Sequence record: MT129654.1 | Source: Escherichia phage MN04 | Length of the DNA: 64,000 nt | Strand: one strand, 5' to 3' | Shown: piece by piece, positions 993 to 63,141 of the stretch | How positions within the stretch are numbered: the first letter of the stretch is position 1 | Layout: every line of letters starts with the position of its first letter | Notes under the pieces: model-generated | Told to the model about the DNA's origin: nothing | The model's database searches: none | What the model saw: only the letters and a program-made list of their open reading frames with translations | Program-made: the position numbers and the translations under genes

Positions 993-1562
993 ATGAACAT
1001 CGAACAAAAATGTCTTTATCAAGACCGAATCAATTCCAAATTTTCAAAATCTGAACAAGCGTTGTTAGAGAAATGTCTGGATGCCAAAAAAGACCCTAAC
1101 TTCCATTACGACCTAGACAAACTGGTTCGTAAGCATGTCACTTCAGTGGTTCCGGTAGAGCTTTATCGTGGGATTACCACCAGAGAACTTGGGCAATTAG
1201 AGCTCCTTTCAGTAGGATGTCAATGGTCTCCTGGCCGGGTTACTTCTTTTAGTACACAATACTCTCAGGCTTGCCAGTTCGCAGGGTCATGGGAATATGG
1301 AACCAAAACCATTTTAAGTCTCAGGAATGCACCCTTCATTTTTGACTACTACAATCATGCTATCGACCTTGTTCTTGCAGGGAGTGCGGACGAACTTGAA
1401 ATAGATGAAACCCGTATTGACCTCTATGATATGGTCGAAACCGAATGTGAGTTCATGGTCTCTAGCCTATCACGATTTGAGATTGTTGAAATCGAAACTA
1501 TCAAAAGAGACCCATACGACATCGAGTACAAAATAATTCATTTAAAAATGTTGGATTTTTAG
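993..1562 (+). CDS. modB: Mono-ADP-ribosyltransferase, ModA/ModB family (ModB position by synteny)
   Basis: 189 aa; ART triad pattern LYRGI ... TSFST ... ECEFMV (R / S-x-S / E-x-E); tandem with a second ART upstream of srd-dda as in T4. Confidence 0.55.
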   Translation: MNIEQKCLYQDRINSKFSKSEQALLEKCLDAKKDPNFHYDLDKLVRKHVTSVVPVELYRGITTRELGQLELLSVGCQWSPGRVTSFSTQYSQACQFAGSWEYGTKTILSLRNAPFIFDYYNHAIDLVLAGSADELEIDETRIDLYDMVETECEFMVSSLSRFEIVEIETIKRDPYDIEYKIIHLKMLDF

Positions 1563-1616
1563 TTTACAGGCAAGGAAGCTTGTGGTACTATCTTTCTATC
1601 AACTGAGGAGAATAAT

Positions 1617-2231
1617 ATGTTATATCCAAGCCATAAATTAGCAGAATTTATCAACAATGCCAAATGCGACGATTTCCGTGAGAATACCCAGATAGAAATT
1701 GATGAGGTGTATTCTGATTTAGAACAGAGCACGCTCTGGCAGTGTATGGAAAATAAACCTGATTCTATCCAGGAAACTCTGAACAAAATTATTCGTAAGA
1801 ACCTGACTTCTGTAGTGCCTGATAAGCTCTATCGCGGTATATCTAAAAAGACCCTGAAGTATCTAGAGTCCACAATGTGTGTGGGTGCGGTAATTGAATT
1901 CGACCGCGTGATGAGCTTCTCTAAAGACTTCAACGTAGCAAGGAATTTCGCATCTTATAACTTCTACGGCACATTTAATATCTTTTGTATTAATGATGCG
2001 CCATTTGTGTACAATTATCAGGAAGAAATCTTTAAAATGTTATGTGCTGCGCCCCCTGAAGAGTTCCCAGGCGCATTTCCTGAATCTACACGTGTAGCAA
2101 ACTTACAATTAATTAATGATGAAGATGAGATGATGTTCCCTGCGGGAACTACGCTGCGCGTAGACTCTATTGAGAGAAATCCTAAATGGAATAATTACAC
2201 CATTTGGAATCTTTCCGTTCTTTCTTACTGA
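1617..2231 (+). CDS. modA: Mono-ADP-ribosyltransferase, ModA/ModB family (ModA position by synteny)
   Basis: 204 aa; LYRGIS ... MSFSKDF ... EDEMMFPAG triad pattern; tandem paralog of the preceding ORF. Confidence 0.55.
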   Translation: MLYPSHKLAEFINNAKCDDFRENTQIEIDEVYSDLEQSTLWQCMENKPDSIQETLNKIIRKNLTSVVPDKLYRGISKKTLKYLESTMCVGAVIEFDRVMSFSKDFNVARNFASYNFYGTFNIFCINDAPFVYNYQEEIFKMLCAAPPEEFPGAFPESTRVANLQLINDEDEMMFPAGTTLRVDSIERNPKWNNYTIWNLSVLSY

Positions 2232-2300
2232 ACCACCCGGTTTAATTGAAAGGCAAAGTCCTTGATTCATTATACTGTTGAAAATTTAAAGCAAAAAAGT

Positions 2301-2329
2301 GTTTACTTTATTAAGCAACATGATACTAT
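2301..2329 (+). promoter_or_regulatory. T4-type early promoter
   Basis: GTTTAC 2301-2306, 17-nt spacer, TACTAT 2324-2329 within conserved catgatactatagacctatcaa leader. Confidence 0.6.
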
Positions 2330-2368
2330 AGACCTATCAACTAATCGTCCGTAAGATGAGAAAATATC

Positions 2369-3118
2369 ATGCCTACTATTAAAACTAACGATGAATTTGA
2401 GTTAAAGGTTTACAACCGCCGCAAACACACCAAAGCTTCTGCTTATAAACGCGGTAAGGACTTCAATCTGTCCAGTAAGTATGTTCGTAGACTTCTCGAA
2501 CAAAAAGTGTGCGCTTATTCAGGCGAGTACTTTGATGAAAATTCAGTTAATGATAAGATTTCATTTGAACGTTTTAACAACGATATCGGTTATATTGAGG
2601 GTAATGTAATCCCAGTTAAAGTTAAGTATAACAGCTTACGTGCCGATTTGTCCCTTGATGAACTGAAACGTGCTCAGACTCGTTTAGCAGTTCGTATTTC
2701 AGGTAGTTCTAAAATGCCTAATAGTTTTAAAGTTACTCCTGATAACTATTATAAAATCCGTAAAATCGTTAAAAATATAAAAGATACCCAAAGAGGTCTT
2801 AAAAAACGTGAAAAACGTCTTAAAGACCTTATTAAATCGGGAGCTACTGATAAGACTCCTTCTGTTATCGCGGTTAAGGCCCGTATCCATGGTTCTAACG
2901 CTTCAATAGGTACTATGGAAAAAGGTCTTAAATCTTTAATTGGTGGGCCTGATTGGCGTGTTAAGTTTAAATTGTCTGAAGCAGAAACGCGTTACGATAT
3001 GTATGATAAAATTATTCAAGGTCTGGAGCGTTTAGAACACCTTTCTTTTATTGACAAATTGAAGTTGAAAAAAGGTCTTCCGCTGAATGCTTCAATTTTT
3101 TCACTGATTAGAGGTTAA
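2369..3118 (+). CDS. srd: Srd-like early protein (by size and position between modA and dda.1)
   Basis: 249 aa, same length class and position as T4 Srd; own early promoter; identity not checked by alignment. Confidence 0.4.
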   Translation: MPTIKTNDEFELKVYNRRKHTKASAYKRGKDFNLSSKYVRRLLEQKVCAYSGEYFDENSVNDKISFERFNNDIGYIEGNVIPVKVKYNSLRADLSLDELKRAQTRLAVRISGSSKMPNSFKVTPDNYYKIRKIVKNIKDTQRGLKKREKRLKDLIKSGATDKTPSVIAVKARIHGSNASIGTMEKGLKSLIGGPDWRVKFKLSEAETRYDMYDKIIQGLERLEHLSFIDKLKLKKGLPLNASIFSLIRG

Positions 3119-3122
3119 CGTG

Positions 3123-3419
3123 ATGTACTATGCATACGTATTAGTTCACAAGGACAAAGATGGGTATGAAATTCCATTAGAAGATGCCGGTGAAGTGACT
3201 TTGTATTCGACAAAGATTGGAGCCGACACTGCTTTAGAGGCTTATGAAATCTCAACAAAAAGATATCTTCGGCTTGGACGCCTTGAAACAGTGTGCACGC
3301 CAAGAAAGTGGTGGTTTGATAAGTGGGAAACTAAAACGGTTTTTCCTACCAAAGAACGGGCCCGAGAATTAAAATTGATTTTAGACACTTTATATGTTAA
3401 GCGAGTAAAATTGGCATGA
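3123..3419 (+). CDS. Hypothetical protein (dda.1 position)
   Basis: ATG at 3123 (track starts at GTG 3120); stop overlaps dda start. Confidence 0.4.
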   Translation: MYYAYVLVHKDKDGYEIPLEDAGEVTLYSTKIGADTALEAYEISTKRYLRLGRLETVCTPRKWWFDKWETKTVFPTKERARELKLILDTLYVKRVKLA

Positions 3420-4747
3420 TTACATTTGAAGACTTGAATATTGGGCAACGGACGGCCTTTAAAGAAATCATTGAAGCTATTAAACGACGTAAGGGCGAAT
3501 GGATTACATTGAATGGTCCTGCTGGTACAGGTAAAACGACCCTTACTAAATTTATCCTTGACCACTTAGTCAAGAATGGCGAACTCGGAGTTATTTTGAC
3601 CGCACCTACACACGCGGCCAAGAAGGTATTGTCGAAACTCGCAGGCCAAGAAGCATCGACAATCCACCGAATCTTAAAGATTAACCCGACTACATACGAA
3701 GACCAGGATATTTTTGAACAACGTGAAGCTCCTGACTTGAGCAAATGTAATGTTCTTGTGGTCGACGAAGGCTCAATGATTGACGGTAAGTTGTTTAAGA
3801 TTATCGAAGCTTCAGTTCCGCCATGGTGCACTGTACTGGGGATTGGCGACCGAGCTCAGTTACAACCTGTAGAACCAGGAAGTGATGGAAGTCCTCAGTT
3901 GTCTCCATTCTTTACCCATCCTAAAATTAAACAGCTACACCTTACTGAAGTAATGCGTAGTAATGCTCCTATCATTGAGGTTGCTACTGAAATCCGTAAT
4001 GGTGGATGGTTCCGAGATTGTATATTCGAAGGTCACGGTGTCCATGGTTTTAAATCTCAAACGGCTTTAAAAGATTTTATGATGAATTATTTTTCCATCG
4101 TAAAAGATGCTGATGCCTTGTTTGAGAACAGGATGTTTGCTTATACAAATAAATCAGTTGAAAAACTGAATAGCATTATTCGTAAAAAGCTTTATGAAAC
4201 CGATACGCCTTATATCAAGGGCGAAATCCTCGTGATGCAAGAGCCTTTTATTAAGGAACTTGAATACGACGGTAAGAAATTCTCTGAAACCATTTTTAAT
4301 AACGGCCAGATGGTTCGTATTTTAGATGTGAACCACACCTCATTGTTCTTGTCTGCCAAGGATGTAGGCACTCGCCAGATGATTAATTACTGGGACCTCC
4401 AGGTTGAATCTGTTGATGAGGATGACGAGTACTATGTAGAACACTTGAAAGTTATTGATGAGGCTTCAGTTGAGAAGTTCCATTATTTCTTGGCTAAGGT
4501 GGCTACTGAGTACAAGGCTATGCGTGGAACAGGTAAGAAACCTAAGTGGGCTGATTTCTGGAAAGCTAAGAGAATGTTCACTAAGGTTCGAGCTCTTCCG
4601 GTGAGCACTGTCCATAAATCACAGGGTCTTACTGTCCAAAACAGTTTCATCTATACTCCGTGCATGCACATGGCAGATGCCAATTTAGCTTCACAGCTGG
4701 CTTATGTTAGTATTACCCGTGCTCGCACTGATGCCTATTATGTTTGA
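3416..4747 (+). CDS. dda: Dda DNA helicase (SF1B)
   Basis: 443 aa; Walker A GPAGTGKTT; long stretches matching T4 Dda as remembered (LTAPTHAAKK, PWCT..GIGD, TPCMH); dda.1-dda-dexA synteny. Confidence 0.95.
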   Translation: MITFEDLNIGQRTAFKEIIEAIKRRKGEWITLNGPAGTGKTTLTKFILDHLVKNGELGVILTAPTHAAKKVLSKLAGQEASTIHRILKINPTTYEDQDIFEQREAPDLSKCNVLVVDEGSMIDGKLFKIIEASVPPWCTVLGIGDRAQLQPVEPGSDGSPQLSPFFTHPKIKQLHLTEVMRSNAPIIEVATEIRNGGWFRDCIFEGHGVHGFKSQTALKDFMMNYFSIVKDADALFENRMFAYTNKSVEKLNSIIRKKLYETDTPYIKGEILVMQEPFIKELEYDGKKFSETIFNNGQMVRILDVNHTSLFLSAKDVGTRQMINYWDLQVESVDEDDEYYVEHLKVIDEASVEKFHYFLAKVATEYKAMRGTGKKPKWADFWKAKRMFTKVRALPVSTVHKSQGLTVQNSFIYTPCMHMADANLASQLAYVSITRARTDAYYV

Positions 4748-4754
4748 GGAAAAT

Positions 4755-4994
4755 ATGATTAAAGTAACTAAAGACCAATTTTATAAGTTGAAATTCGAGA
4801 CGGAATATATTATTAAGGTCAACCCAGACGATACAAATATCCGTGGCAAGGCTCATAAGGTCTTGCATTCACTTAAAGAGATTGAAAGTGATTTTATTGC
4901 AGTGCAAAAACTGATGGACGACAATATCTCTTCGGTTTATATTGAAGACTATACTGTTGGCCAAATCCGAGACCTTATGAGGTACGTTAAATGA
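4755..4994 (+). CDS. Hypothetical protein (dexA.1/dexA.2 position)
   Basis: 79-aa ORF from ATG 4755 with SD ggagg-like (tgaggaaaat) upstream; stop overlaps dexA start. Confidence 0.4.
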   Translation: MIKVTKDQFYKLKFETEYIIKVNPDDTNIRGKAHKVLHSLKEIESDFIAVQKLMDDNISSVYIEDYTVGQIRDLMRYVK

Positions 4995-5665
4995 AAGATA
5001 TAATTATTGACTTCGAAACCTTTGCCACTACCCAAAATGCAGCAGTTATCGACCTCGCCGTAATTGCTTATGACCCTAATCCAGAGGTAGTAGAATCGTT
5101 TGAAGAGCTTACTCAACGCGGTCTTCGTATTAAATTTGATTTGGCTTCTCAACGCGATAAACGTCTGTTCTCTAAAAGCACATTGCAGTGGTGGAAAGAA
5201 CAAGGACCTGAAGCACGTAAAAACCTGGCTCCGTCCGAAATTGATGTGAGTACTTCTATCGGCATTGGTAATTTCCTGGAATACTGCCGTAAAAACGAAG
5301 TGGACCAATGGAAATCCCAGATGTGGTGCCGCGGAATGTCCTTTGACTTTCCGATCTTAGTCGACCTTATTCGTGATGCTTATCGTTCTGAAGGTGTTCC
5401 TGAGAACGAAATCGATACAACTAAGTTGGAACCGGTTAAATTCTGGAACCAACGTGATATCCGCACGGCCATTGAAGCCTATTCACTGACGCGTGGATTA
5501 AGCATGTGCCCTCTGCCTAACGGAACATTGAATGGCTTTGTAGCCCATGACTCTATCCATGACTGTGCTAAGGATATCTTGATGCTGAAATATGCCCAAC
5601 GATATGCTTTAAACCTGGAAGATGTTCCTGAGAATCCAGACCCATTAAGTGTAAAAAATCGATAA
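4991..5665 (+). CDS. dexA: Exonuclease A (DnaQ-like 3'-5' exonuclease)
   Basis: 224 aa; N-terminal MKDIIIDFETFATT exo motif I (D-x-E); size and position match T4 DexA. Confidence 0.85.
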   Translation: MKDIIIDFETFATTQNAAVIDLAVIAYDPNPEVVESFEELTQRGLRIKFDLASQRDKRLFSKSTLQWWKEQGPEARKNLAPSEIDVSTSIGIGNFLEYCRKNEVDQWKSQMWCRGMSFDFPILVDLIRDAYRSEGVPENEIDTTKLEPVKFWNQRDIRTAIEAYSLTRGLSMCPLPNGTLNGFVAHDSIHDCAKDILMLKYAQRYALNLEDVPENPDPLSVKNR

Positions 5666-5669
5666 AAGT

Positions 5670-5698
5670 GTTTACTTCTCCTCATGACATGATATTAT
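5670..5698 (+). promoter_or_regulatory. T4-type early promoter embedded in an 11-bp inverted repeat
   Basis: GTTTAC 5670-5675, TATTAT 5693-5698; arms ttctcctcatg (5676-5686) and catgaggagaa (5711-5721) bracket the -10 and the SD. Confidence 0.6.
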
Positions 5699-5725
5699 CT
5701 ACCCTATCAACATGAGGAGAACAAA

Positions 5726-6229
5726 ATGAAAATTTATCGAGTTGAGTCATCGTTCAGTATCTTAGATGATGGAAACGCTATCACAATACGACGAGACCTC
5801 TGTACTCAAATGACTCCGTATAGAAGTACAATGGACTCATGGAGTGAAGGCTGGTTATTGGAAGTAGGTTTCGACAGACCCAATTTTAAGCATCGTCATA
5901 CCATCAATAAAAATATTCCACTACCAAGTCAAGATAAGTTGCTGGTAGAAAATTCTAATAAAACCATTAGAACTAAGTGGAAACGGCCTGATTATGAAGA
6001 CTGTGATGATTATATTCCAGGTTGGTTTGTTAACCTCTACCATTTTGCTTTTGCCAGTGAGTATGATATGATGCGCTGGTTCACTCGTGAAGAGCGTAAA
6101 GAATTATCTTCTAAAGGATTCTATCTTGCCGTTTACGAAATACCTGAAGATGAGGTAGTCATTGGTGACCGCCAAGTAATGTTCCGCAAGTCCCATGCTG
6201 AACTCGTAGATTTTATTGAAATGAGATAA
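5726..6229 (+). CDS. Hypothetical early protein (MotB position by synteny)
   Basis: 167 aa, similar size to T4 MotB (162 aa); position dexA -> motB; no motif evidence. Confidence 0.4.
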   Translation: MKIYRVESSFSILDDGNAITIRRDLCTQMTPYRSTMDSWSEGWLLEVGFDRPNFKHRHTINKNIPLPSQDKLLVENSNKTIRTKWKRPDYEDCDDYIPGWFVNLYHFAFASEYDMMRWFTREERKELSSKGFYLAVYEIPEDEVVIGDRQVMFRKSHAELVDFIEMR

Positions 6230-6231
6230 TT

Positions 6232-6783
6232 ATGAAATTTAATTATAATCCCAAATACACACCGAACCCGGCGGCCAAATTGATTGATTTTGATGTTTTA
6301 AGCACTTATGCAGCCCCTATTGAACCATTAGAAATTAAGGAAACCACTATGACTACTCAGACTATCGAAATCGGTAAAACCTACAAACTGGTTGAACCTG
6401 AAATTAAAACTAAGGCCTTGATTTCTGGTTATAAAACTCTGACTGATGTTTTTGGCGAAGGCGAATTTATTGTTGAAGAATTCGCTAAAAGTGAGTGGTT
6501 TGACAAATCTTACGTCATCCACGGTCGCCGGTTAGATAATAACAAAATAGAGAAAAACCTGGTTTATGAAGATGAATTTGGGCTTTTCCGTGAAGTCGGA
6601 GTCGAACAAGACCCTACAGACCTGTTGTGTGCTGCTGTGGCTATCCGTCGTCCTTTTGATAATCCTATCTGTGGTTGGGTAACAGACCAGTGGATTGAAG
6701 ATGGTGTTGAACTCCTGAACGTTGTACATGCTGGTGATTTTAGCGTAGTACCTCGTAGTGCAGTGGTTAATGTATTGAATTAA
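6232..6783 (+). CDS. Hypothetical protein, paralog A of a tandem pair
   Basis: 183 aa; C-terminal block GWVTDQWIEDGVELLNVVHAGDFSVVP shared with the next ORF. Confidence 0.5.
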   Translation: MKFNYNPKYTPNPAAKLIDFDVLSTYAAPIEPLEIKETTMTTQTIEIGKTYKLVEPEIKTKALISGYKTLTDVFGEGEFIVEEFAKSEWFDKSYVIHGRRLDNNKIEKNLVYEDEFGLFREVGVEQDPTDLLCAAVAIRRPFDNPICGWVTDQWIEDGVELLNVVHAGDFSVVPRSAVVNVLN

Positions 6784-6785
6784 TA

Positions 6786-6814
6786 GTTTACTTTATCGAG
6801 AGCCATGTTATAAT
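6786..6814 (+). promoter_or_regulatory. T4-type early promoter with palindrome across the -10
   Basis: GTTTAC 6786-6791, TATAAT 6809-6814 centred in agagccatgttataatggctct. Confidence 0.6.
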
Positions 6815-6856
6815 GGCTCTTATGGATTATAATCCTTTAACCAAGAGAGAAAAATT

Positions 6857-7408
6857 ATGATTACTATCGGTGAAATTGTTCGTGTATCCAAAGAATCTCG
6901 CTCAAAAGCCGCAGGTCGTTTTGTTGAAGTTGCAGGTATTCGTACCAATTTAGTAGGTGGAATTAAAGAAGTTAAAGTGCGTATTATTCCTAAAAATGGC
7001 CAGACCGAAACCGAATTTGCTTATGTTCGCCCTAAATTTTTAAAATCGACTGAATTTACCGGATACATCGCTCCTGTAGTTGAAGAAGTTGAATCCCATG
7101 ATGGGTATGTATGTGAAAGCAATGATATTCGCGGCGTAGTAGCTCAAGACGTTGAAACTATTGACCAATCTCATGTCGGCGTTGATTTCAAATGGAAATT
7201 AGGTCGAGGAGTGTGTTTTAATACTCCTAAACCGTTCAAATATGTTGACGAACCTTTTGGTACTTACGAAACCAGTAGCATGTCTGGTTACATCACAGAC
7301 CAGTGGGTTGAAGGTGGCGTTAAGCTCTATAACATCGTGTTCCTTGGAACCTTTAAGGTTGTTCCTGAAAGCTTTATTGTTGAATATGCTAACATTCACC
7401 GTGCATAA
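6857..7408 (+). CDS. Hypothetical protein, paralog B of a tandem pair
   Basis: 183 aa; C-terminal block GYITDQWVEGGVKLYNIVFLGTFKVVP matches preceding ORF. Confidence 0.5.
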   Translation: MITIGEIVRVSKESRSKAAGRFVEVAGIRTNLVGGIKEVKVRIIPKNGQTETEFAYVRPKFLKSTEFTGYIAPVVEEVESHDGYVCESNDIRGVVAQDVETIDQSHVGVDFKWKLGRGVCFNTPKPFKYVDEPFGTYETSSMSGYITDQWVEGGVKLYNIVFLGTFKVVPESFIVEYANIHRA

Positions 7409-7569
7409 AGTTTAAAAAACAGTATACAATACGGTAGGGTAGTGATAAGATTACCCTATCAAAACAAATGAGTGAAATGGAGAATAAAAATGTTTGCACC
7501 TTATATTATGATTACAGTTATCGTTATCTGTCTGTATCTTTTAATTAAAGCTTGTTAAGGAGATTTAAA

Positions 7570-7791
7570 ATGACTACTAAAATCACTGCAAACTCGACTC
7601 GTGAAGAATTTGAAGATGTTCTGTTCAACCCTGATTTAATCGTGGTTCAAAAGGAACATTCTGATACGTTTTCTCATTTATCGTCGGTTTATGTATACGA
7701 AAATCAAGGTGATAAAAACCCTATGTATGCAGTGTTCCGTGAAATCACTGCTGAAGGCACCGACTTCTGGAAGGAAACTTACAATGCTTAA
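7570..7791 (+). CDS. Hypothetical small protein (cef position)
   Basis: 73-aa ORF from ATG 7570 with SD taaggag upstream; T4 Cef is 71 aa at the equivalent position. Confidence 0.35.
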   Translation: MTTKITANSTREEFEDVLFNPDLIVVQKEHSDTFSHLSSVYVYENQGDKNPMYAVFREITAEGTDFWKETYNA

Positions 7792-8287
7792 TCAAGAACT
7801 TGAATTTGAAAAAGGTAAATGGTACTATTTTAAAGATGACGCGGCAGAAGCTGAATTCCGTAAGCTGAATTCCCATAATATTAGGACTCCTAATAATTCT
7901 TCTATAGCAGATATTATTGTCAATTCTGAAGGTTTTTGCCCTGTTAGATTAGCGGCAGGTTATGTGATGAACGTGGACTTGGCTTATGGTGATAACATTG
8001 ATATGGTTTTATATCCAAGCGAGCGTAAATTCTTTACGGAAATGGTTGTAGTTGACAGTGAAGACGAATGGGCCGAAGATGGTTTTTCTGAAGAAGACCG
8101 GTCTGAACCGAGTGATTTCCCTTTGACTAAAATCACTATGGAAATGGGTTTAGTTGGCGGTGAAGACCAGTCTGAAGACGCAGCCCCATATGAACCGAGT
8201 GATTTCCCTTTGACTAAAATCACTATCTCCAATAATTCTGAAGCCTGGACTGTTTACCGGATGTTGAAAGCCCACTTTAAGGAATAA
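7784..8287 (+). CDS. Hypothetical acidic protein with internal tandem duplication (goF position)
   Basis: 167-aa ORF from ATG 7784; contains duplicated peptide EPSDFPLTKIT encoded by a perfect 35-bp direct repeat. Confidence 0.4.
   Translation: MLNQELEFEKGKWYYFKDDAAEAEFRKLNSHNIRTPNNSSIADIIVNSEGFCPVRLAAGYVMNVDLAYGDNIDMVLYPSERKFFTEMVVVDSEDEWAEDGFSEEDRSEPSDFPLTKITMEMGLVGGEDQSEDAAPYEPSDFPLTKITISNNSEAWTVYRMLKAHFKE
8105..8226 (+). repeat. Intragenic direct repeat (2 x 35 bp perfect, period 87 bp)
   Basis: gaaccgagtgatttccctttgactaaaatcactat at 8105-8139 and 8192-8226. Confidence 0.85.
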
Positions 8288-55848: not shown

Positions 55849-57368
55849 TTTTAGATATTTTAAACGAAATTGCTTCTATTGATTCTACTAAAGCTAAAGA
55901 AGCTATTATTGCTCGTGAAAAGGATAACGAGCTTCTGAAACGTGTATATCGTATGGCTTATACCCGTCGTTTGAACTATGGTATTAAAAAGTGGCCAGAA
56001 CCTGGATTTACGTCTCAATCCTTTGGTATGATTACACTTGAAGACCTTCTTGATTTCGCTGAGTTCACATTAGCCACCCGTAAGATTACGGGTAATGCTG
56101 CTATTGAAGAGCTTGCTCAAATTATTGCTGATGCTAAGGGTCCTGACGCTGAGGTATTACGTCGCGTAATGATGCGTGACCTTGAATGTGGTGCATCGAT
56201 TTCTATTGCTAACAAGGTTTGGAAAGGTTTAATCCCTGAACAACCTCAAATGTTGGCTAGTTCTTATGATGAAGATTTGATTAAGAAAAATATTAAATGG
56301 CCTGCGTTCGCCCAATTAAAAGCTGACGGCGCCCGTTGTTTTGCTGAAGTTCGTAACGATGGCGTAACATTCCTTACTCGTGGTGGTAATGAATACCAAG
56401 GGCTTAATCTTTTGGCGGCTGAATTAATGGCCATGACCGAAGAAGCTCGACAGCGCCATCCTAATGGTGTTATGATTGATGGCGAATTAGTTTACCACAC
56501 TCCTAAAGTAGAACCTAAAGCATCTAATGATTTGTTTAGTATGTTTGATGAGGAACTTCCTGAATTAAGTAAAGCCAAGGAATTCCAAACCGTAGCCGAT
56601 CGTTCTACTTCAAACGGGTTGGCTAACAAGGCTCTTCAAGGAACTATTACTCCAACCGAAGCAGCAGGTATGGTGTTACAGGCGTGGGATTATGTCCCAT
56701 TGGATGTCGTATATTCCGAAGGTAAAATTAAAGGCGATAAGTATGATGTACGCTTTGCAGCCTTAGAACTTATGGTTGCTCATAATGTCGTATTGCATGG
56801 TACAACGCGTGTTGAAGCTATCGAAAACCAATGGGTTAATAATCTTGACGAAGCTAAAGTCGTTTATAAGAAATATGTCGACCAAGGCCTGGAAGGTATT
56901 ATCCTTAAGAACATGGACTCCTACTGGGAAAACCGCCGTTCTAAGAATCTTATCAAGTTCAAAGAAGTAATCGATATCGCTTTAGAAGTGGTAGGTTATT
57001 ATGAACACTCGAAGGACCCAAACAAACTTGGTGGTGTCGAGCTAGTATCACGGTGTCGTCGAATTACATCTGACTGTGGTTCAGGCTTTAAAGATACTAC
57101 CCATAAGAAAGATAAATCAGGTAAAAAGGTATTGATTCCATTAGAAGACCGTCCTGATTTAGACCGTGAACTTCTTATGAAACAAGCCCGTGAAGGTAAA
57201 TTGATTGGACGTATTGCTGACTGTGAATGTAATGGTTGGGTTCATTCTAAAGGACGTACTGATACTGTAGGTATTTTCCTTCCAATTATTAAAGGTTGGC
57301 GTTTCGATAAAACAGAAGCTGATACATTTGAAGATGTATTTGGTGATTGGTCTCAAACTGGACTATAA
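55845..57368 (+). CDS. 30: ATP-dependent DNA ligase
   Basis: 507 aa; adenylation motif KADGAR; N-terminus MILDILNEIASIDSTKAK and motif-VI region matching T4 ligase as remembered. Confidence 0.93.
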   Translation: MILDILNEIASIDSTKAKEAIIAREKDNELLKRVYRMAYTRRLNYGIKKWPEPGFTSQSFGMITLEDLLDFAEFTLATRKITGNAAIEELAQIIADAKGPDAEVLRRVMMRDLECGASISIANKVWKGLIPEQPQMLASSYDEDLIKKNIKWPAFAQLKADGARCFAEVRNDGVTFLTRGGNEYQGLNLLAAELMAMTEEARQRHPNGVMIDGELVYHTPKVEPKASNDLFSMFDEELPELSKAKEFQTVADRSTSNGLANKALQGTITPTEAAGMVLQAWDYVPLDVVYSEGKIKGDKYDVRFAALELMVAHNVVLHGTTRVEAIENQWVNNLDEAKVVYKKYVDQGLEGIILKNMDSYWENRRSKNLIKFKEVIDIALEVVGYYEHSKDPNKLGGVELVSRCRRITSDCGSGFKDTTHKKDKSGKKVLIPLEDRPDLDRELLMKQAREGKLIGRIADCECNGWVHSKGRTDTVGIFLPIIKGWRFDKTEADTFEDVFGDWSQTGL

Positions 57369-57369
57369 T

Positions 57370-57540
57370 ATGAAAGCTTATTTAGAAACAATTGTTGTAA
57401 CAAACGCAAATAACACTGCGGCCTCTCAAATCATCCTAGAGTTTGAGGATGAAATAGCTTTTGCCGATTTTAAAGACGTGTTTGACGGCTATGAAAAAGG
57501 CCCGACATTCGAAGTATATCGTACGTTGCTACCACTTTAA
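57370..57540 (+). CDS. Hypothetical small protein
   Basis: 56-aa ORF from ATG 57370. Confidence 0.3.
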   Translation: MKAYLETIVVTNANNTAASQIILEFEDEIAFADFKDVFDGYEKGPTFEVYRTLLPL

Positions 57541-57558
57541 GGCCTTCGGGCCTTTTAT
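57539..57558 (+). terminator. Rho-independent terminator
   Basis: aaggccttcgggcctt hairpin followed by ttat. Confidence 0.6.
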
Positions 57559-57590
57559 GGCATAAATACGGTTATTAAAGAGGAATTATT

Positions 57591-59678
57591 ATGACCGAAC
57601 AATTAAATGAAGTGTTTGAGTCCGAAGGCACCCTGCCTACTGTAAACTTAAACCCAAAACTTAAAGTACCCCAGATTTGGAAGATTGGCGACGCCGAATC
57701 CCAATTAGTTGCTCGTATGGTATCTTATGCCTCTGAAGGCGATGCTATTAAACAGGTTAAATTAGGTGATAAATATGCCCACGTTATTTTGATGAGTTTA
57801 TCAGCTAAAGGTACTCCAGCCGAACTTAAAGGTGGATTAGGCCCTACTCCTATTGATGCTATTAATACCATTTTCGACGTAGTATTCGAACAAGTTAAAA
57901 AGCTTCGTATGGATGCTGTGATGTTCCGTTTTCCAACCAAGAAAATGAAAGGACAAGGACCTATTGTCCAACGGATTATCCAACGTTTGGTAGCACAGAA
58001 AACCGGTGGACGTTTTAAAGTAGTTCCAGCCATGTACCAATTTACCGGTAAACATACTTATATCCTAGTAGTTCGTAAACAAGCTGATATCGAAGATATC
58101 AAAGGTATGCCTGGAATTAATGCCGAATTATATACTAAGGTAGATTCTGATGTTGGTGAAGTTTATATTTCTAAAAAAGAAGGCGCTCAGGTTACTAAAG
58201 AAACCGCTATTGCCGGCAGTATTGCTAAAGTTGAAGAACGTCGCACTGATAAAATGGTTATAACCAAGACTAAGATTTCTCGTCGTGCGATTGCGGCAAG
58301 CCAGTCATTAGAAGCAGACCGTAATGAAGGTGAATTATTTCAGAAATATGAACAAACTGCCAATGAGTTCAGTGCGCCTGCTACGGCGGAATTAATTCCA
58401 CAAGCAGCCGAAGTTGAATTATCATTATCATCCGAAACAGCTAAGGATAAGCTGGCTACGGCTATTGATTTTAAAATTTATAATACTATGGATGATTCAT
58501 TTAAATTTGCGGATGAAGTTTCTTACGGTGATAAAATTAACTCTTCTTTAGAAAAATTTGTCAAAAAAATTAAAAATGAAAAAACCACGTCAGTTAAAGC
58601 TTTAGCCGCCTTTGTTGAAGCTGCTAATGAAATCGCAGAATCTATTAAAAGTGATTGGTTTGAAGATTATAGAAAAGACAATTTCCATTTGGAAAAAGAG
58701 ATATTGAATGAAAACAGTGAAAGAGTATGGAAACAACGTAAGTCTTCATTCTTGTCTAAGATAATGTATACATACGCTATAGAATCAACTAGAGAAATTC
58801 TTAATATAACAACATCTCGAGACCCTAAACAATATACACTTGCAGAAAAACGAGCTATCAGAGAATACGCCTCTTCAGCTTATATTGATATTAACAATGT
58901 CCTTCTTGGCCGTTATAAACCGGGCTTTTATGAAGTTTTGGACGAAAGCGAAGTTAAACGTGCTATTGATGGAATGGATTCTGCCTTTAAAAATGGTGAC
59001 CGTTTACCTGAAGGAATAATGGTTTATAGAGCACAATCTTTGCGCGCGCCTATCTACGAAGCATTAGTTAAAAATAAGGTATTCTATTTTAGAAACTATG
59101 TTTCAACCTCATTGGCTCCAATCATTTTTGGTGGCTTTAAAGAGAATGCGGCTATTGGTCTTGCTTCCGATGATGTTCGAAAAGAATTAAACATTGATAA
59201 TAATGACGAAGGCGTTACCATCTCTGCTAGTCAAGTGCGTACACATATGTATGCGCCGGATCAAATCCGTGTTGATGTTGGCTGGGCTATTAGTGGCGCT
59301 CATAAGGTTAACGTGATTTATCCTGGCCAATTAAGCATGCATGCCAACGAAAAGGAAATAATTTTACCACGCGGGCTACTTGTAAAAATAGATAAAATCG
59401 TGGATGCATCAGCCAATACTGGTTCTGGGGCGGTTTCTAACAATAAATTTATTCAAGCTGAAGTTATGACATCAGATGAGCTTCAAGAATCTGTAGTGTA
59501 TGATGGTGACGTACTAATGGAAACCGGTGAGTTGGTCGTATACCAAGATGACTTCGATACTTCCGAAAGCCCTGTATCTTTTGATTCATTTGTTAAATCT
59601 ACACGGTTTGACGTACTGCCTCTTTTGGCTTCATGCATAGACCTCTATGGCATACCAGAAAAATTCATCCAAGGGTAA
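57591..59678 (+). CDS. alt: Alt-type ADP-ribosyltransferase (virion-injected), copy 1
   Basis: 695 aa (T4 Alt 682 aa); C-terminal ART pattern MVYRAQ ... YVSTSL ... EKEIILPRG; position downstream of ligase as in T4. Confidence 0.8.
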   Translation: MTEQLNEVFESEGTLPTVNLNPKLKVPQIWKIGDAESQLVARMVSYASEGDAIKQVKLGDKYAHVILMSLSAKGTPAELKGGLGPTPIDAINTIFDVVFEQVKKLRMDAVMFRFPTKKMKGQGPIVQRIIQRLVAQKTGGRFKVVPAMYQFTGKHTYILVVRKQADIEDIKGMPGINAELYTKVDSDVGEVYISKKEGAQVTKETAIAGSIAKVEERRTDKMVITKTKISRRAIAASQSLEADRNEGELFQKYEQTANEFSAPATAELIPQAAEVELSLSSETAKDKLATAIDFKIYNTMDDSFKFADEVSYGDKINSSLEKFVKKIKNEKTTSVKALAAFVEAANEIAESIKSDWFEDYRKDNFHLEKEILNENSERVWKQRKSSFLSKIMYTYAIESTREILNITTSRDPKQYTLAEKRAIREYASSAYIDINNVLLGRYKPGFYEVLDESEVKRAIDGMDSAFKNGDRLPEGIMVYRAQSLRAPIYEALVKNKVFYFRNYVSTSLAPIIFGGFKENAAIGLASDDVRKELNIDNNDEGVTISASQVRTHMYAPDQIRVDVGWAISGAHKVNVIYPGQLSMHANEKEIILPRGLLVKIDKIVDASANTGSGAVSNNKFIQAEVMTSDELQESVVYDGDVLMETGELVVYQDDFDTSESPVSFDSFVKSTRFDVLPLLASCIDLYGIPEKFIQG

Positions 59679-59681
59679 ATA

Positions 59682-61805
59682 ATGGAAAATTTAAACGAAG
59701 TTTTTGATAGTGATTCCGCTAAAAACTATCCAGTAACAAATCTTAAGCCGGGCTCCGGTATCCCACAGATTTTCTCTATCCAAGCACCAGGTAACGATAA
59801 CCTGGTTGCTCGTATGGTATCTTATGCGTCTCAAGGAGACGCTATTAAAATGGTTAAGCCAGGCGACAAATATGTCCATGTTATTTTAATGAGTTTGTCG
59901 AGCAAGGGTGCTCCAGCCGAACTCAAAGGTGGTCTTGGTTCCGACCCACTTGGTGCATTGAATACTATTTTTGATACGATATACGAACAAGTAAATAAAC
60001 TTAAAATGGATGCGGTTTTGTTCCGTTTCCCTACCAAGAAAATGAAAGGTAAGGGCCCTACTGTTCAGCGTGTATTAGCTCGTTTGGCGATGGCACGTAC
60101 CGGTGGTAAGTTTAAAGTTGTCGATGATATGTTCCAGTTTAGTGGTAAACATACATACGTTCTTTTAGCACGTCGTGGCACTAATATCGAAGATATCAAG
60201 GGTATGCCTGAAATTGATGCGGACCTTTATACCAAGGTTGAGTCTAAAGTCGGTGAAGTTTATGTTTCTAAGAAAACCGGCCAGGCCGTAAGTAAGGTCG
60301 AAGCCGTAGCGGCATCTATTGCACAGGTTGAAGAGAAACGTACCGATAAGGCTGTTATCTCTCGTACTAAAATTTCCCGTCGTATGGCTGCAGCAGCGCA
60401 GTATTCTACTGCCGAACCTGAAACTTTATCACCTAAAGAATTGCAGGTTTATAACGAGTTTGAAGCTTCTGTCCCTGTTCACTCGGCCGAAGGCCCTGAG
60501 AACGAAGGTATTGAGCAGATTAGTCAGAACTTTAAAAAAGGTGCTATTACTAAAATGCGTCAGGCCTCTCAGTTTAAATCTAAGAGTGAGGACCTTGCCA
60601 ACTTTAGATACACCATTGCTCTCACGCACGCTTTAATGACTGATAGTAAATTTAAACTAAATTATGCTAATAGAGATAAACAAGGGTTTGAAATTTACTC
60701 TAATAATATGGCATTTTTTAATACGGAAGTCGATAGACTTTTAAGTGGCCTTTCTCAAATCAATACTACCAATAGTCTGGATATTATTAAGAGAATTGTT
60801 AATAACCTGAGTGCCCGTTTTCAGGGGTCTCCTTCAGAGAAAGCATCCCGAATTGCTTTCGCTATGGAAGCCGTTTATAAACTGATTAACGATTCTATTA
60901 GCGATGCATATGCTTATTCAGGCGAGCTCATTAAACCTAAGGGCTTGACCAAAGACGAAAGTAATGCCATTATTGAATATTGTGCGGCTGAATATGCTCC
61001 TATGAACTTATTCCTTTTAGGTAAACCTGAATCCGAAAACAATACAACAGCTATTAAATTGATTAAGGATTTAGACTCAGCATTTACCAAGGGTATTAAA
61101 CTTCCTAAGGGTACTATTTTGTATCGTGGTCAGGATTTACCATACAAAATTCTGCGCCATAATATTGATAACAAAACATTTTACTTTAAGAACTTTGTGT
61201 CCGCTTCATTAAAGCCTAATATCTTTGGCGAATTTGGTAAAAATTATATGGCCCTCGACAACCAAGCAGTTTTTGTTGGCGATGAAGGTTCTTTATCCTC
61301 CGCTGATGAGTTGTTTAAATTAGCCAGTGGTAGTTCATCTGATGTAGGCGAAGTTGATGATGAAGAGGTAGAATGGGAAGAAGACGAGTTCGGTAATCCA
61401 ATTGCACCTGAAGGCCCTGCAGACAGGATTGCTGAAATCGGTATGGTTATTCGAGGTGCTGAAGCAGTTAAAGTTATCGCTCCTGGTGACCTTACAGAAT
61501 ATTCCGAAGAAGCAGAAATTATCCTTCCGCGAGGATTATTGTTGAAGGTTGATAAAGTAGCGGCTTTTGCTATGAATGATAGAGTATCTCACAAATACCT
61601 TATGGAAGCTACAGTGACATCTCCTTCAGAACTCAGTGGGTCCGTTTACGATGGTGACCATCTGATGGAAACCGGTGAAGTTAAATTGATGAATGGGTTT
61701 AAAGAATTCCTAGTTTCAGAATCTGTTTCAGAAAGTAATGAGGCTATGGAAATCCTTGCTGCATCTTTGGACATCTCTTCTTTACCAAATAAATTCAAAA
61801 TGTAG
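59682..61805 (+). CDS. Alt-type ADP-ribosyltransferase, copy 2 (tandem paralog)
   Basis: 707 aa; N-terminal ~230 aa near-collinear with copy 1; C-terminal ILYRGQ ... FVSASL ... EAEIILPRG. Confidence 0.75.
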   Translation: MENLNEVFDSDSAKNYPVTNLKPGSGIPQIFSIQAPGNDNLVARMVSYASQGDAIKMVKPGDKYVHVILMSLSSKGAPAELKGGLGSDPLGALNTIFDTIYEQVNKLKMDAVLFRFPTKKMKGKGPTVQRVLARLAMARTGGKFKVVDDMFQFSGKHTYVLLARRGTNIEDIKGMPEIDADLYTKVESKVGEVYVSKKTGQAVSKVEAVAASIAQVEEKRTDKAVISRTKISRRMAAAAQYSTAEPETLSPKELQVYNEFEASVPVHSAEGPENEGIEQISQNFKKGAITKMRQASQFKSKSEDLANFRYTIALTHALMTDSKFKLNYANRDKQGFEIYSNNMAFFNTEVDRLLSGLSQINTTNSLDIIKRIVNNLSARFQGSPSEKASRIAFAMEAVYKLINDSISDAYAYSGELIKPKGLTKDESNAIIEYCAAEYAPMNLFLLGKPESENNTTAIKLIKDLDSAFTKGIKLPKGTILYRGQDLPYKILRHNIDNKTFYFKNFVSASLKPNIFGEFGKNYMALDNQAVFVGDEGSLSSADELFKLASGSSSDVGEVDDEEVEWEEDEFGNPIAPEGPADRIAEIGMVIRGAEAVKVIAPGDLTEYSEEAEIILPRGLLLKVDKVAAFAMNDRVSHKYLMEATVTSPSELSGSVYDGDHLMETGEVKLMNGFKEFLVSESVSESNEAMEILAASLDISSLPNKFKM

Positions 61806-61834
61806 TTTACAACACCACAAGGATGTGGTACTAT
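61805..61834 (+). promoter_or_regulatory. T4-type early promoter
   Basis: GTTTAC 61805-61810, TACTAT 61829-61834, hairpin ccacaaggatgtgg in spacer. Confidence 0.55.
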
Positions 61835-61862
61835 TACCTTACACAAACATGAGGAGAACATT

Positions 61863-62153
61863 ATGAAATCTACATTCCGCTTTAACGGTCAAGAACTGGT
61901 AGTTGAAAACGTTATCCCTGCTTCTGAAGAGTTCGACAGTGCAGTCGGTAATGAATTACGTCGAGTTTTCGGCGAAGACAAACAGTTCGACTTACGCCCG
62001 GTTGAAAATTTTTCACAACCTGAACAAACTGAAAATATCTTTAATGGTGTAGTAACCGGTCAGCTTGAATCTGAAGCTCCTATTTCTATTACGGTCTTTG
62101 TTAAAAAGCAGCCATTAATGACCGCAGCAGGTTTTATCTCGTTCCGTAAATAA
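61863..62153 (+). CDS. Hypothetical protein
   Basis: 96-aa ORF with SD gaggag, followed by terminator. Confidence 0.45.
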   Translation: MKSTFRFNGQELVVENVIPASEEFDSAVGNELRRVFGEDKQFDLRPVENFSQPEQTENIFNGVVTGQLESEAPISITVFVKKQPLMTAAGFISFRK

Positions 62154-62162
62154 ACCCCTAAA

Positions 62163-62187
62163 GGAGAGCGTAAGCTCTCCTTTTTTG
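62163..62187 (+). terminator. Rho-independent terminator
   Basis: ggagagcgtaagctctcc hairpin followed by tttttt. Confidence 0.75.
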
Positions 62188-63141
62188 TTATAACAACCTG
62201 GATATTCCATTATTAATAGCACGCCCACCAAATGTATTAACCAATCCGGTCAATCCACTAGAAGCTCCTGAAAGTCGGCTTAATTTAGCTACAGAAGCAC
62301 TTAATGAGTTACTCTCACTTATACCTGCTACGCCTTTAAGGACTTTATCTTCCAGCCATTCATAAGCAGCTTGTTTACCAACTGCACCTGTCTGCACACT
62401 TCTATAAGCAAATGTAACATCAAACGAAGCAATTTGGTTATCACCATCATAGGATAATTCCGGCGATGAAACACTAACAGGAACACATCCATTAAGCATT
62501 ACCACCGTATGTGGCAATCCATTACGAGAATGAAGGTTGACTTGGATGTCAGCTTCAACATCTTCAGGCAATGCTCTTAATTGTGTAATAGGGTCTTGGA
62601 CACTATTGACCCAATCATTAAAAGCACGGTAGTTGGCAGCTTCAGAATCCATACGGAAGCTTAATACCAATGGGGAATATTCTCTTCCGGTAATTTTGAT
62701 ATTAGGCGAGTTGTGGTTCAAATCCATTTCATAGTTCAAAGTATTATCCGGAATTTTAACGGCATGGACTAAAAGACCTGCCGTAGGATAAGCCATATTG
62801 AAAAAATCCATAAGATAAGTCCCGACTTCAAACTCACCTAGTAAGCTCTGCACAACCCTGGATGACATAGCTCCAATCAGATATTTACTTATGCCGGACT
62901 TACGAATCAACTTCTGAGTGCCCGCTGTCACTAATGTCGTAACACCTTGGGTTAAATCTCCTTGGGTAATTCCAAACAAATCGGTATTCAACGGGATATT
63001 GTTAAATAAAGCTCCACCGAACTGGTCGAGGAGCGCTTGGGATTTAGAAGAAGGAACTGTAGCAAATACTACACTAAACAGGTTATTCCTTTGTAGGTCA
63101 ATATTAATTGCCTGGTTTTGAAATTCTTGTAAAGTATACAT
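62188..63141 (-). CDS. 54: Baseplate tail-tube initiator gp54
   Basis: 317 aa (T4 gp54 320 aa), minus strand, immediately downstream of gp48 with ATGA overlap. Confidence 0.75.
   Translation of the reverse strand: MYTLQEFQNQAINIDLQRNNLFSVVFATVPSSKSQALLDQFGGALFNNIPLNTDLFGITQGDLTQGVTTLVTAGTQKLIRKSGISKYLIGAMSSRVVQSLLGEFEVGTYLMDFFNMAYPTAGLLVHAVKIPDNTLNYEMDLNHNSPNIKITGREYSPLVLSFRMDSEAANYRAFNDWVNSVQDPITQLRALPEDVEADIQVNLHSRNGLPHTVVMLNGCVPVSVSSPELSYDGDNQIASFDVTFAYRSVQTGAVGKQAAYEWLEDKVLKGVAGISESNSLSASVAKLSRLSGASSGLTGLVNTFGGRAINNGISRLL

Follow-up and report, generated by a model that had tools for sequence, protein, structure and literature searches.

The Alt protein of bacteriophage T4 (gpAlt, NP_049811) is a characterised, head-packaged NAD:arginine ADP-ribosyltransferase (ART). 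Its known target is RNA polymerase alpha, and modification at Arg265 of this subunit, together with that of further host proteins, is listed as a trait of the T4 Alt family. The T4 prohead core holds about 40 copies of gpAlt, which lose a short N-terminal peptide to gp21; after its entry into the host, gpAlt modifies RNA polymerase (PMC9958956). T4 has one full-length alt gene, followed by the small open reading frames (ORFs) alt.-1 and alt.-2, which have been explained by an ancient duplication of the beginning of alt (RefSeq; Nolan 2006, PMC1524935). Full-length alt duplicates in T4-like phages were noted in 2006, including one in Aeromonas phage 44RR (Nolan 2006, PMC1524935). Here we describe a tandem pair of full-length alt genes, called altA and altB, in Escherichia phage MN04 (MT129654.1). 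They lie in a stretch of 64,000 nucleotides that was analysed as a whole and is referred to as the window. We are confident that the pair is the annotated alta/altb of JS98-type T4-like coliphages (genus Dhakavirus) and that it represents two old Alt lineages that have been maintained separately.

The two plus-strand ORFs of the window's ORF list, 3 nt apart, are placed exactly as a first-pass annotation of the DNA had reported:

57591..59678, plus strand: altA, 695 aa, orthologue of T4 alt, named alta in JS98
59682..61805, plus strand: altB, 707 aa, second Alt lineage, named altb in JS98

The same annotation quoted four peptides, all of which are present in the ORFs, and its assignment of the two as Alt-type ART paralogs with a shared N-terminal part and C-terminal ART core is borne out by profile searches. 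The C-terminal thirds score 100.1 bits (altA) and 65.0 bits (altB) against PF03496 (ADPrib_exo_Tox), both above the Pfam gathering cut-off of 23.4 bits. PHROG 802, "Alt-like RNA polymerase ADP-ribosyltransferase", is matched end to end by altA (residues 1-694 to profile 1-674, E = 1e-257) and by altB (residues 1-707 to profile 2-674, E = 9e-251). The full-length profile match, the position of the locus and the catalytic R / S-x-S / E-x-E residues place both proteins in the T4 Alt family, and the ART fold is that of the R-S-E clade (PF03496). The two are 41% identical over their full length (BLASTP, E = 2e-151). With 43% identity and 550 bits, altA is a better match to T4 Alt than altB is (33%, 324 bits), and is therefore taken as the T4 Alt orthologue. 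A 4.9 kb part of the window (57300-62200) is 99.1% identical in DNA to Escherichia phage JS98 (EF469154), in which the genes are annotated alta (ABX11129) and altb (ABX11128). The altB protein is 99.6% identical to its JS98 counterpart, with the same neighbours in the same order, and JS10 and IME08 carry the same alta/altb annotation. NCBIfam has no model for altA or altB, and PF26846 is found on all homologues as a precomputed label only. A single-sequence search of altA against PDB chains gave no match; the ARTs of C3, Certhrax and CDTa are reached by the family profile only.

Each protein is built of four parts, namely a conserved N-terminal α/β domain that starts with an L-x-E motif, a variable middle, an ART domain of the C3/VIP2 type (R-S-ExE) and a conserved C-terminal tail. 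The same architecture, locus and motifs (R / S-T-S / E-x-E and L/I-x-E) are seen in T4 gpAlt, the middle of which is only 25% identical to that of altA and 10% to that of altB. Segment identities were taken from an alignment of 15 Alt proteins (altA, altB and 13 from related loci) and are given in altA numbering:

N domain, residues 1-235: altA and altB 65% identical
Middle, residues 236-412: 16% identical
ART domain, residues 413-620: 36% identical
C tail, residues 621-695: 40% identical

The corresponding features of the window are as follows. The structural statements refer to AlphaFold2 (AF2) models, with the predicted local distance difference test (pLDDT) and predicted template modelling (pTM) scores where available.

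57591..58244, plus strand: altA conserved N-terminal α/β domain, aa 1-218 (pLDDT 88.9, pTM 0.86), 65% identical to the altB N domain
57603..57611, plus strand: altA Leu5-Asn6-Glu7, candidate prohead-protease motif (gp21-type, L/I-x-E), from family conservation, with cleavage inferred
58308..58826, plus strand: altA variable middle, aa ~240-412, replaced in JS10-type relatives
58827..59450, plus strand: altA ART domain, aa 413-620 (PF03496, E = 1.3e-28)
59028-59030, 59103-59111 and 59349-59357, plus strand: altA catalytic motifs Arg480, Ser505-Thr-Ser507 and Glu587-x-Glu589
59691..59699, plus strand: altB Leu4-Asn5-Glu6, candidate prohead-protease motif, from family conservation
60405..60938, plus strand: altB middle, aa ~242-419, all-helical in the AF2 model
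60939..61619, plus strand: altB ART domain, aa 420-646
61125-61127, 61200-61208 and 61509-61517, plus strand: altB catalytic motifs Arg482, Ser507-Ala-Ser509 and Glu610-x-Glu612, with Tyr607 at position -3
61233..61421, plus strand: acidic insert between S-x-S and E-x-E of altB, aa 518-580, within the ART domain (pLDDT below 50)

The first-pass annotation described the central ~250 aa of the two proteins as unrelated. The length is overstated, the segments being ~175-180 aa long (altA ~240-412, altB ~242-419), but the divergence holds: taken alone, the two middles show no similarity detectable by BLASTP (E = 11), and a comparison of the middle-region families by hhalign, profile against profile, gives a probability of 0.4%. 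Pfam searches with the middle regions returned only sub-threshold noise (E 0.06-0.4). In the model of altB, on which the statement on helical structure rests, the middle lies within a run of helices from residue 205 to 445. Three N domains gave no Pfam match at E up to 10, and the profile match plus acetyl-CoA motif A (Q/R-x-x-G-x-G/A) that would mark a GNAT domain was not found in the N domain. A nearly invariant G-L-G-x-x-P loop is located ahead of a long helix.

The first-pass annotation implied that such a pair is unusual, and it was right that the T4 reference has one full-length alt. However, the arrangement is an ordinary and widespread one that had been annotated before; GenBank has listed the pair under the names alta/altb since 2007. 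The gene order in the window is 30 (ligase), alt.1, altA, altB, alt.-3, 54 and 48, with matching flanks in JS98. The T2 locus has the identical order, with an alt gene of 697 aa (YP_010073851) and an "Alt-like" gene of 685 aa (YP_010073850) in the place of altA and altB, and the T4 order matches apart from the truncated second copy. A tblastn search with altB found 1,748 places in 1,202 phage records. Among records sampled at even intervals along the ranking, about one third carry a full-length, ~47%-identical altB-type copy beside another Alt; T2 is one of these, and so are Tequatroviruses such as RB32 and RB27. Three consecutive Alt genes are present in some Dhakaviruses (KIT01, UGJNEcP3/4, WG01, PSD9 and 04086). 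A standard pair with known redundancy in well-studied relatives had been named in the first-pass annotation as an outcome that would speak against its proposal. The pair is indeed standard in relatives; redundancy between the copies is not shown.

Comparison with T2 separates the two genes. The altB protein is 47% (middle) and 59% (ART domain) identical to the second Alt of T2, and altA is 33% and 60% identical to the first, as compared to 9-16% and 34-36% between the A and B lineages. The proteins encoded by the neighbouring genes have 56-66% identity when the window is compared with T2, and both lineages therefore predate the split of Dhakavirus and Tequatrovirus. By these alignments altB is the orthologue of the second Alt of T2, and the alt.-1/alt.-2 stump of T4 is of the same lineage. 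The product of T4 alt.-1 matches residues 1-56 of the second T2 Alt at 95% identity, and that of alt.-2 matches residues 62-116 at 96%; the T4 DNA realigns with T2 only ~1.7 kb beyond these ORFs (T4 locus 5066-5451 against T2 locus 3501-5558). T4 is for these reasons a deletion derivative of the two-copy state. Judged from this match, its single alt is the derived condition and most of the second copy was lost, T4 being left without an intact one.

There is next to no chance that MN04 acquired the pair by a recent duplication of its own. The observation in favour of this is that the first 235 residues of the two copies, at 65% identity, are more alike than N domains are between genera (42-47%). 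However, the same pair is found in all close Dhakaviruses, in T2, RB32 and RB27 and in many others, and the cassettes formed by the middle and ART domain group by lineage across genera. The range of N-domain identity between paralogs of one genome is 65-67% (window 57591-58295 against 59682-60395; T2 and JS10 loci). The N domain thus tracks the genome and the middle and ART domain track the lineage, which suggests that the N domains are homogenised by recombination within a genome or co-adapted to the phage's own head; either explains their similarity better than a young duplication does. Two old lineages could still be redundant, the second raising the dose of packaged enzyme that modifies RNA polymerase, and the common architecture, N domain, C tail and catalytic motifs, together with the fact that T4 does without a second copy, agree with this. 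We consider it unlikely, since the middles have no detectable similarity, the ART domains are only 36% identical, and the substrate-recognition position and the loop insert of the ART domain differ. Moreover, the separation of the lineages is older than the Dhakavirus/Tequatrovirus split and has been maintained, and copies retained for dosage tend to homogenise or vanish. Three positions before the first catalytic Glu, in the ADP-ribosylating toxin turn-turn (ARTT) loop, B-lineage proteins have Tyr or Phe and A-lineage proteins His, Ile, Pro or Met; an aromatic residue at this position is also present in C3 and iota toxins. The spacing between S-x-S and E-x-E is 103 aa in altB, 82 aa in altA and 80 aa in the second T2 Alt, so that the altB loop is 21 aa longer than that of altA, and residues 513-600 of altB contain 21 Asp/Glu against 5 Lys/Arg. 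From the ARTT difference and the longer acidic loop, different host targets for altA and altB can reasonably be proposed and are plausible, and the divergence of the middle and ART regions would also fit different substrates. Across the Alt family the same spacing ranges from 60 to 216 aa.

The first-pass annotation also noted, correctly, that altA has S-T-S (505-507) where altB has S-A-S (507-509), and proposed on this ground that the second copy may be inactive. A catalytically dead altB, retained as a structural internal head protein or as a binding protein, is in our view quite improbable. The middle Thr is conserved in at least 90% of the family and is found in 126 of the 135 aligned members (the set used for all residue counts), and Ala at this position is limited to Dhakavirus altB and one other cluster. 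On the other side, S-A-S alters the middle residue only. Arg482, Ser507, Ser509, Glu610 and Glu612 are all kept in altB, the corresponding Arg being present in 134 of 135 members and the first Ser and the Glu-x-Glu in all 135; the loss of the catalytic Arg/Glu that the annotation had named as fatal to its proposal is not seen in the sequence alignment. In alignments of the family profile, the Arg and E-x-E of Alt fall on the catalytic Arg and Q/E-x-E of Certhrax and the C3-like toxins. The orthologous second Alt of T2 has the canonical S-T-S, and hence the B lineage as a whole is canonical. Selection points in the same direction: the ratio of non-synonymous to synonymous substitution rates (dN/dS) between altB and the third copy of KIT01 is 0.06 for the whole gene and falls to 0.02 in the ART domain, which is the most strongly constrained part of the protein, and altB and its JS10 counterpart differ by zero non-synonymous changes in the ART domain at a dS of 0.125. 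We conclude that altB is probably active, as the retained catalytic residues and the purifying selection argue.

By analogy with T4 gpAlt, altA and altB would most likely be made late and built into the prohead core, where the prohead protease would trim them at the N-terminal L-x-E. After injection along with the DNA, they would act on host proteins by mono-ADP-ribosylation of arginines. The T4 prohead protease is specific for L/I-x-E, and the near-invariant start of the family fits this: Leu or Ile is found in 129 and Glu in 133 of 135 members, with LNE in both altA and altB. The altB enzyme probably recognises substrates other than those of altA. Taken jointly, this account, comprising the identity of the pair, its four-part architecture, two late, head-packaged and injected mono-ADP-ribosyltransferases and a probably different substrate range of altB, is in our judgement very probably correct. 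Several observations weigh against it. Because the 518-580 insert is poorly predicted in the altB model, the surroundings of the active site are only partly modelled; Thr508Ala is rare, being shared by 7 of 135 members, in the two groups named above; and the candidate late promoter upstream of altA reads CATAAATA and so departs from the T4 late consensus TATAAATA. In the searchable literature we found neither virion proteomics nor activity assays of altA, altB or any B-lineage Alt. A paper naming altA/altB in phages was likewise not found there, and alt goes unmentioned in the Petrov 2010 review.

A close examination of related loci indicates how the lineages diversify. The altA of JS10 and the second copy of 04086 are nearly identical to the window altA in the N domain (96-98%) and tail (96-97%), but only 36% identical in the middle and 59-61% in the ART domain; a different middle and ART cassette is what distinguishes JS10-type phages from the window. 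Their ART domain is instead 94-95% identical in protein to that of T2 Alt (JS10 1792-3876; 04086 3343-5424; T2 1404-3497), still above the 56-66% of the neighbouring genes. A recent horizontal transfer from a T2-like phage was considered and rejected, since the DNA is only 77% identical over a protein identity of 94%, and the exchange is therefore not recent. The same pattern separates T4 from T2 Alt: identity is 99% for the N domain and 95% for the tail, as compared to 32% for the middle and 64% for the ART domain. When the 135 family members are clustered at 50% identity, the N domain falls into 3 clusters, the ART domain into 19 and the middle into 37. Third copies in some Dhakaviruses represent further cassette types, with ART domains 33-40% identical to both A and B (KIT01 3883-5928; 04086 1439-3334). 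In the second copy of KIT01, an N domain like that of altB (89%) is joined to a tail nearer to that of altA (60% against 40%), a mosaic as expected from recombination between conserved ends. We also noticed that the third Alt gene of 04086 (OR842557, locus 6001-7990) is annotated as N-terminally truncated, with 608 aa and an X in its translation. Similarity to the N-domain region of altB in the window is retained just upstream, at 6001-6233, and the truncation looks like a sequencing or assembly flaw and not biology.

The catalytic core of the Alt family resembles that of the C3-like and binary R-S-E ARTs (Vis, C3bot, Certhrax, CDTa, iota Ia and VIP2; PF03496), with only 12-25% identity. The Alt proteins differ from these in an insert of 60-100 aa between S-x-S and E-x-E, in their phage-specific N domain, middle and tail, and in delivery, which is by the phage head for Alt and by secretion for the toxins. 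A likeness in mechanism, not in family membership, exists to polymorphic toxin systems, in that the Alt N domain and C tail flank a swapped middle and ART module. Unlike in those systems, the locus contains no immunity gene and no array of standalone cassettes, and what is exchanged are alleles within a single enzyme family and not unrelated toxin folds. Tentatively, and with less than even confidence, the Alt locus could be regarded as a polymorphic effector system, in which a genome-specific chassis, made up of the N domain and C tail and fitted to the head of the phage itself, carries swappable middle and ART modules shuffled among copies, phages and genera, one to three injected enzymes per virion act on distinct targets, and the B lineage supplies a second injected ART, whose own substrates could be, for example, defence or translation proteins and not RNA polymerase alpha.

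Nearly all knowledge of Alt comes from T4, a deletion derivative without the second lineage, and the B lineage is unstudied because T4 deleted its B copy. An injected set of two or three different ADP-ribosyltransferases is probable for many T-even phages, T2 among them. The idea that diverged paralogs expand the range of targets is in print for a Tequatrovirus pair (2026, PMC13600099). The interest that is left lies in the unstudied B lineage, whose targets are easy to test experimentally, and in the evolution of a conserved chassis with exchanged cassettes.

The genes and signals around the pair are as follows:

57370..57540, plus strand: alt.1 homologue, 56 aa, upstream neighbour (PF24647 Phage_blade, E = 3.9e-22; alt.1 in JS98)
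57541..57556, plus strand: terminator-like GC hairpin GGCC-TTCG-GGCC, then TTTT, after alt.1, by direct reading (4-pair stem, below the scanner threshold)
57561..57568, plus strand: CATAAATA, candidate T4-type late promoter, 23 nt 5' of the altA ATG, with function inferred
57580..57583, plus strand: altA Shine-Dalgarno sequence GAGG, by sequence
59671..59675, plus strand: altB Shine-Dalgarno-like AAGGG, within the altA 3' end, by sequence
61806..61834, plus strand: sigma-70/T4-early-like promoter (TTTACA, 17 nt, TACTAT, with TG) 5' of alt.-3, a consensus match only
61863..62153, plus strand: alt.-3 homologue, 96 aa, DUF5498, downstream neighbour (PF17602, E = 3.9e-34; JS98 annotation)
62160..62183, no strand assigned: hairpin terminator between the convergent alt.-3 and gene 54 (10-pair stem, then a T run)

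A conserved terminator upstream of alt has been reported in T4-like phages (Nolan 2006, PMC1524935). The altA stop codon (59676-59678) and the altB ATG (59682) are so close that co-transcription is probable. No terminator-like site was seen between the two genes, either by eye or in the terminator scan, and the pair therefore probably forms a single late transcription unit. The early-like promoter begins right after the altB stop codon, so alt.-3 may be expressed at another time than altA and altB. Over the window as a whole, the late-promoter core ATAAATA occurs less often than expected (12 found against 25.6 expected), with one occurrence 23 nt upstream of altA. In JS98, altb is annotated one codon longer (MMEN...); the first codon of that reading is ATA in the window (59679-59684), and altB can therefore start only at the ATG at 59682.

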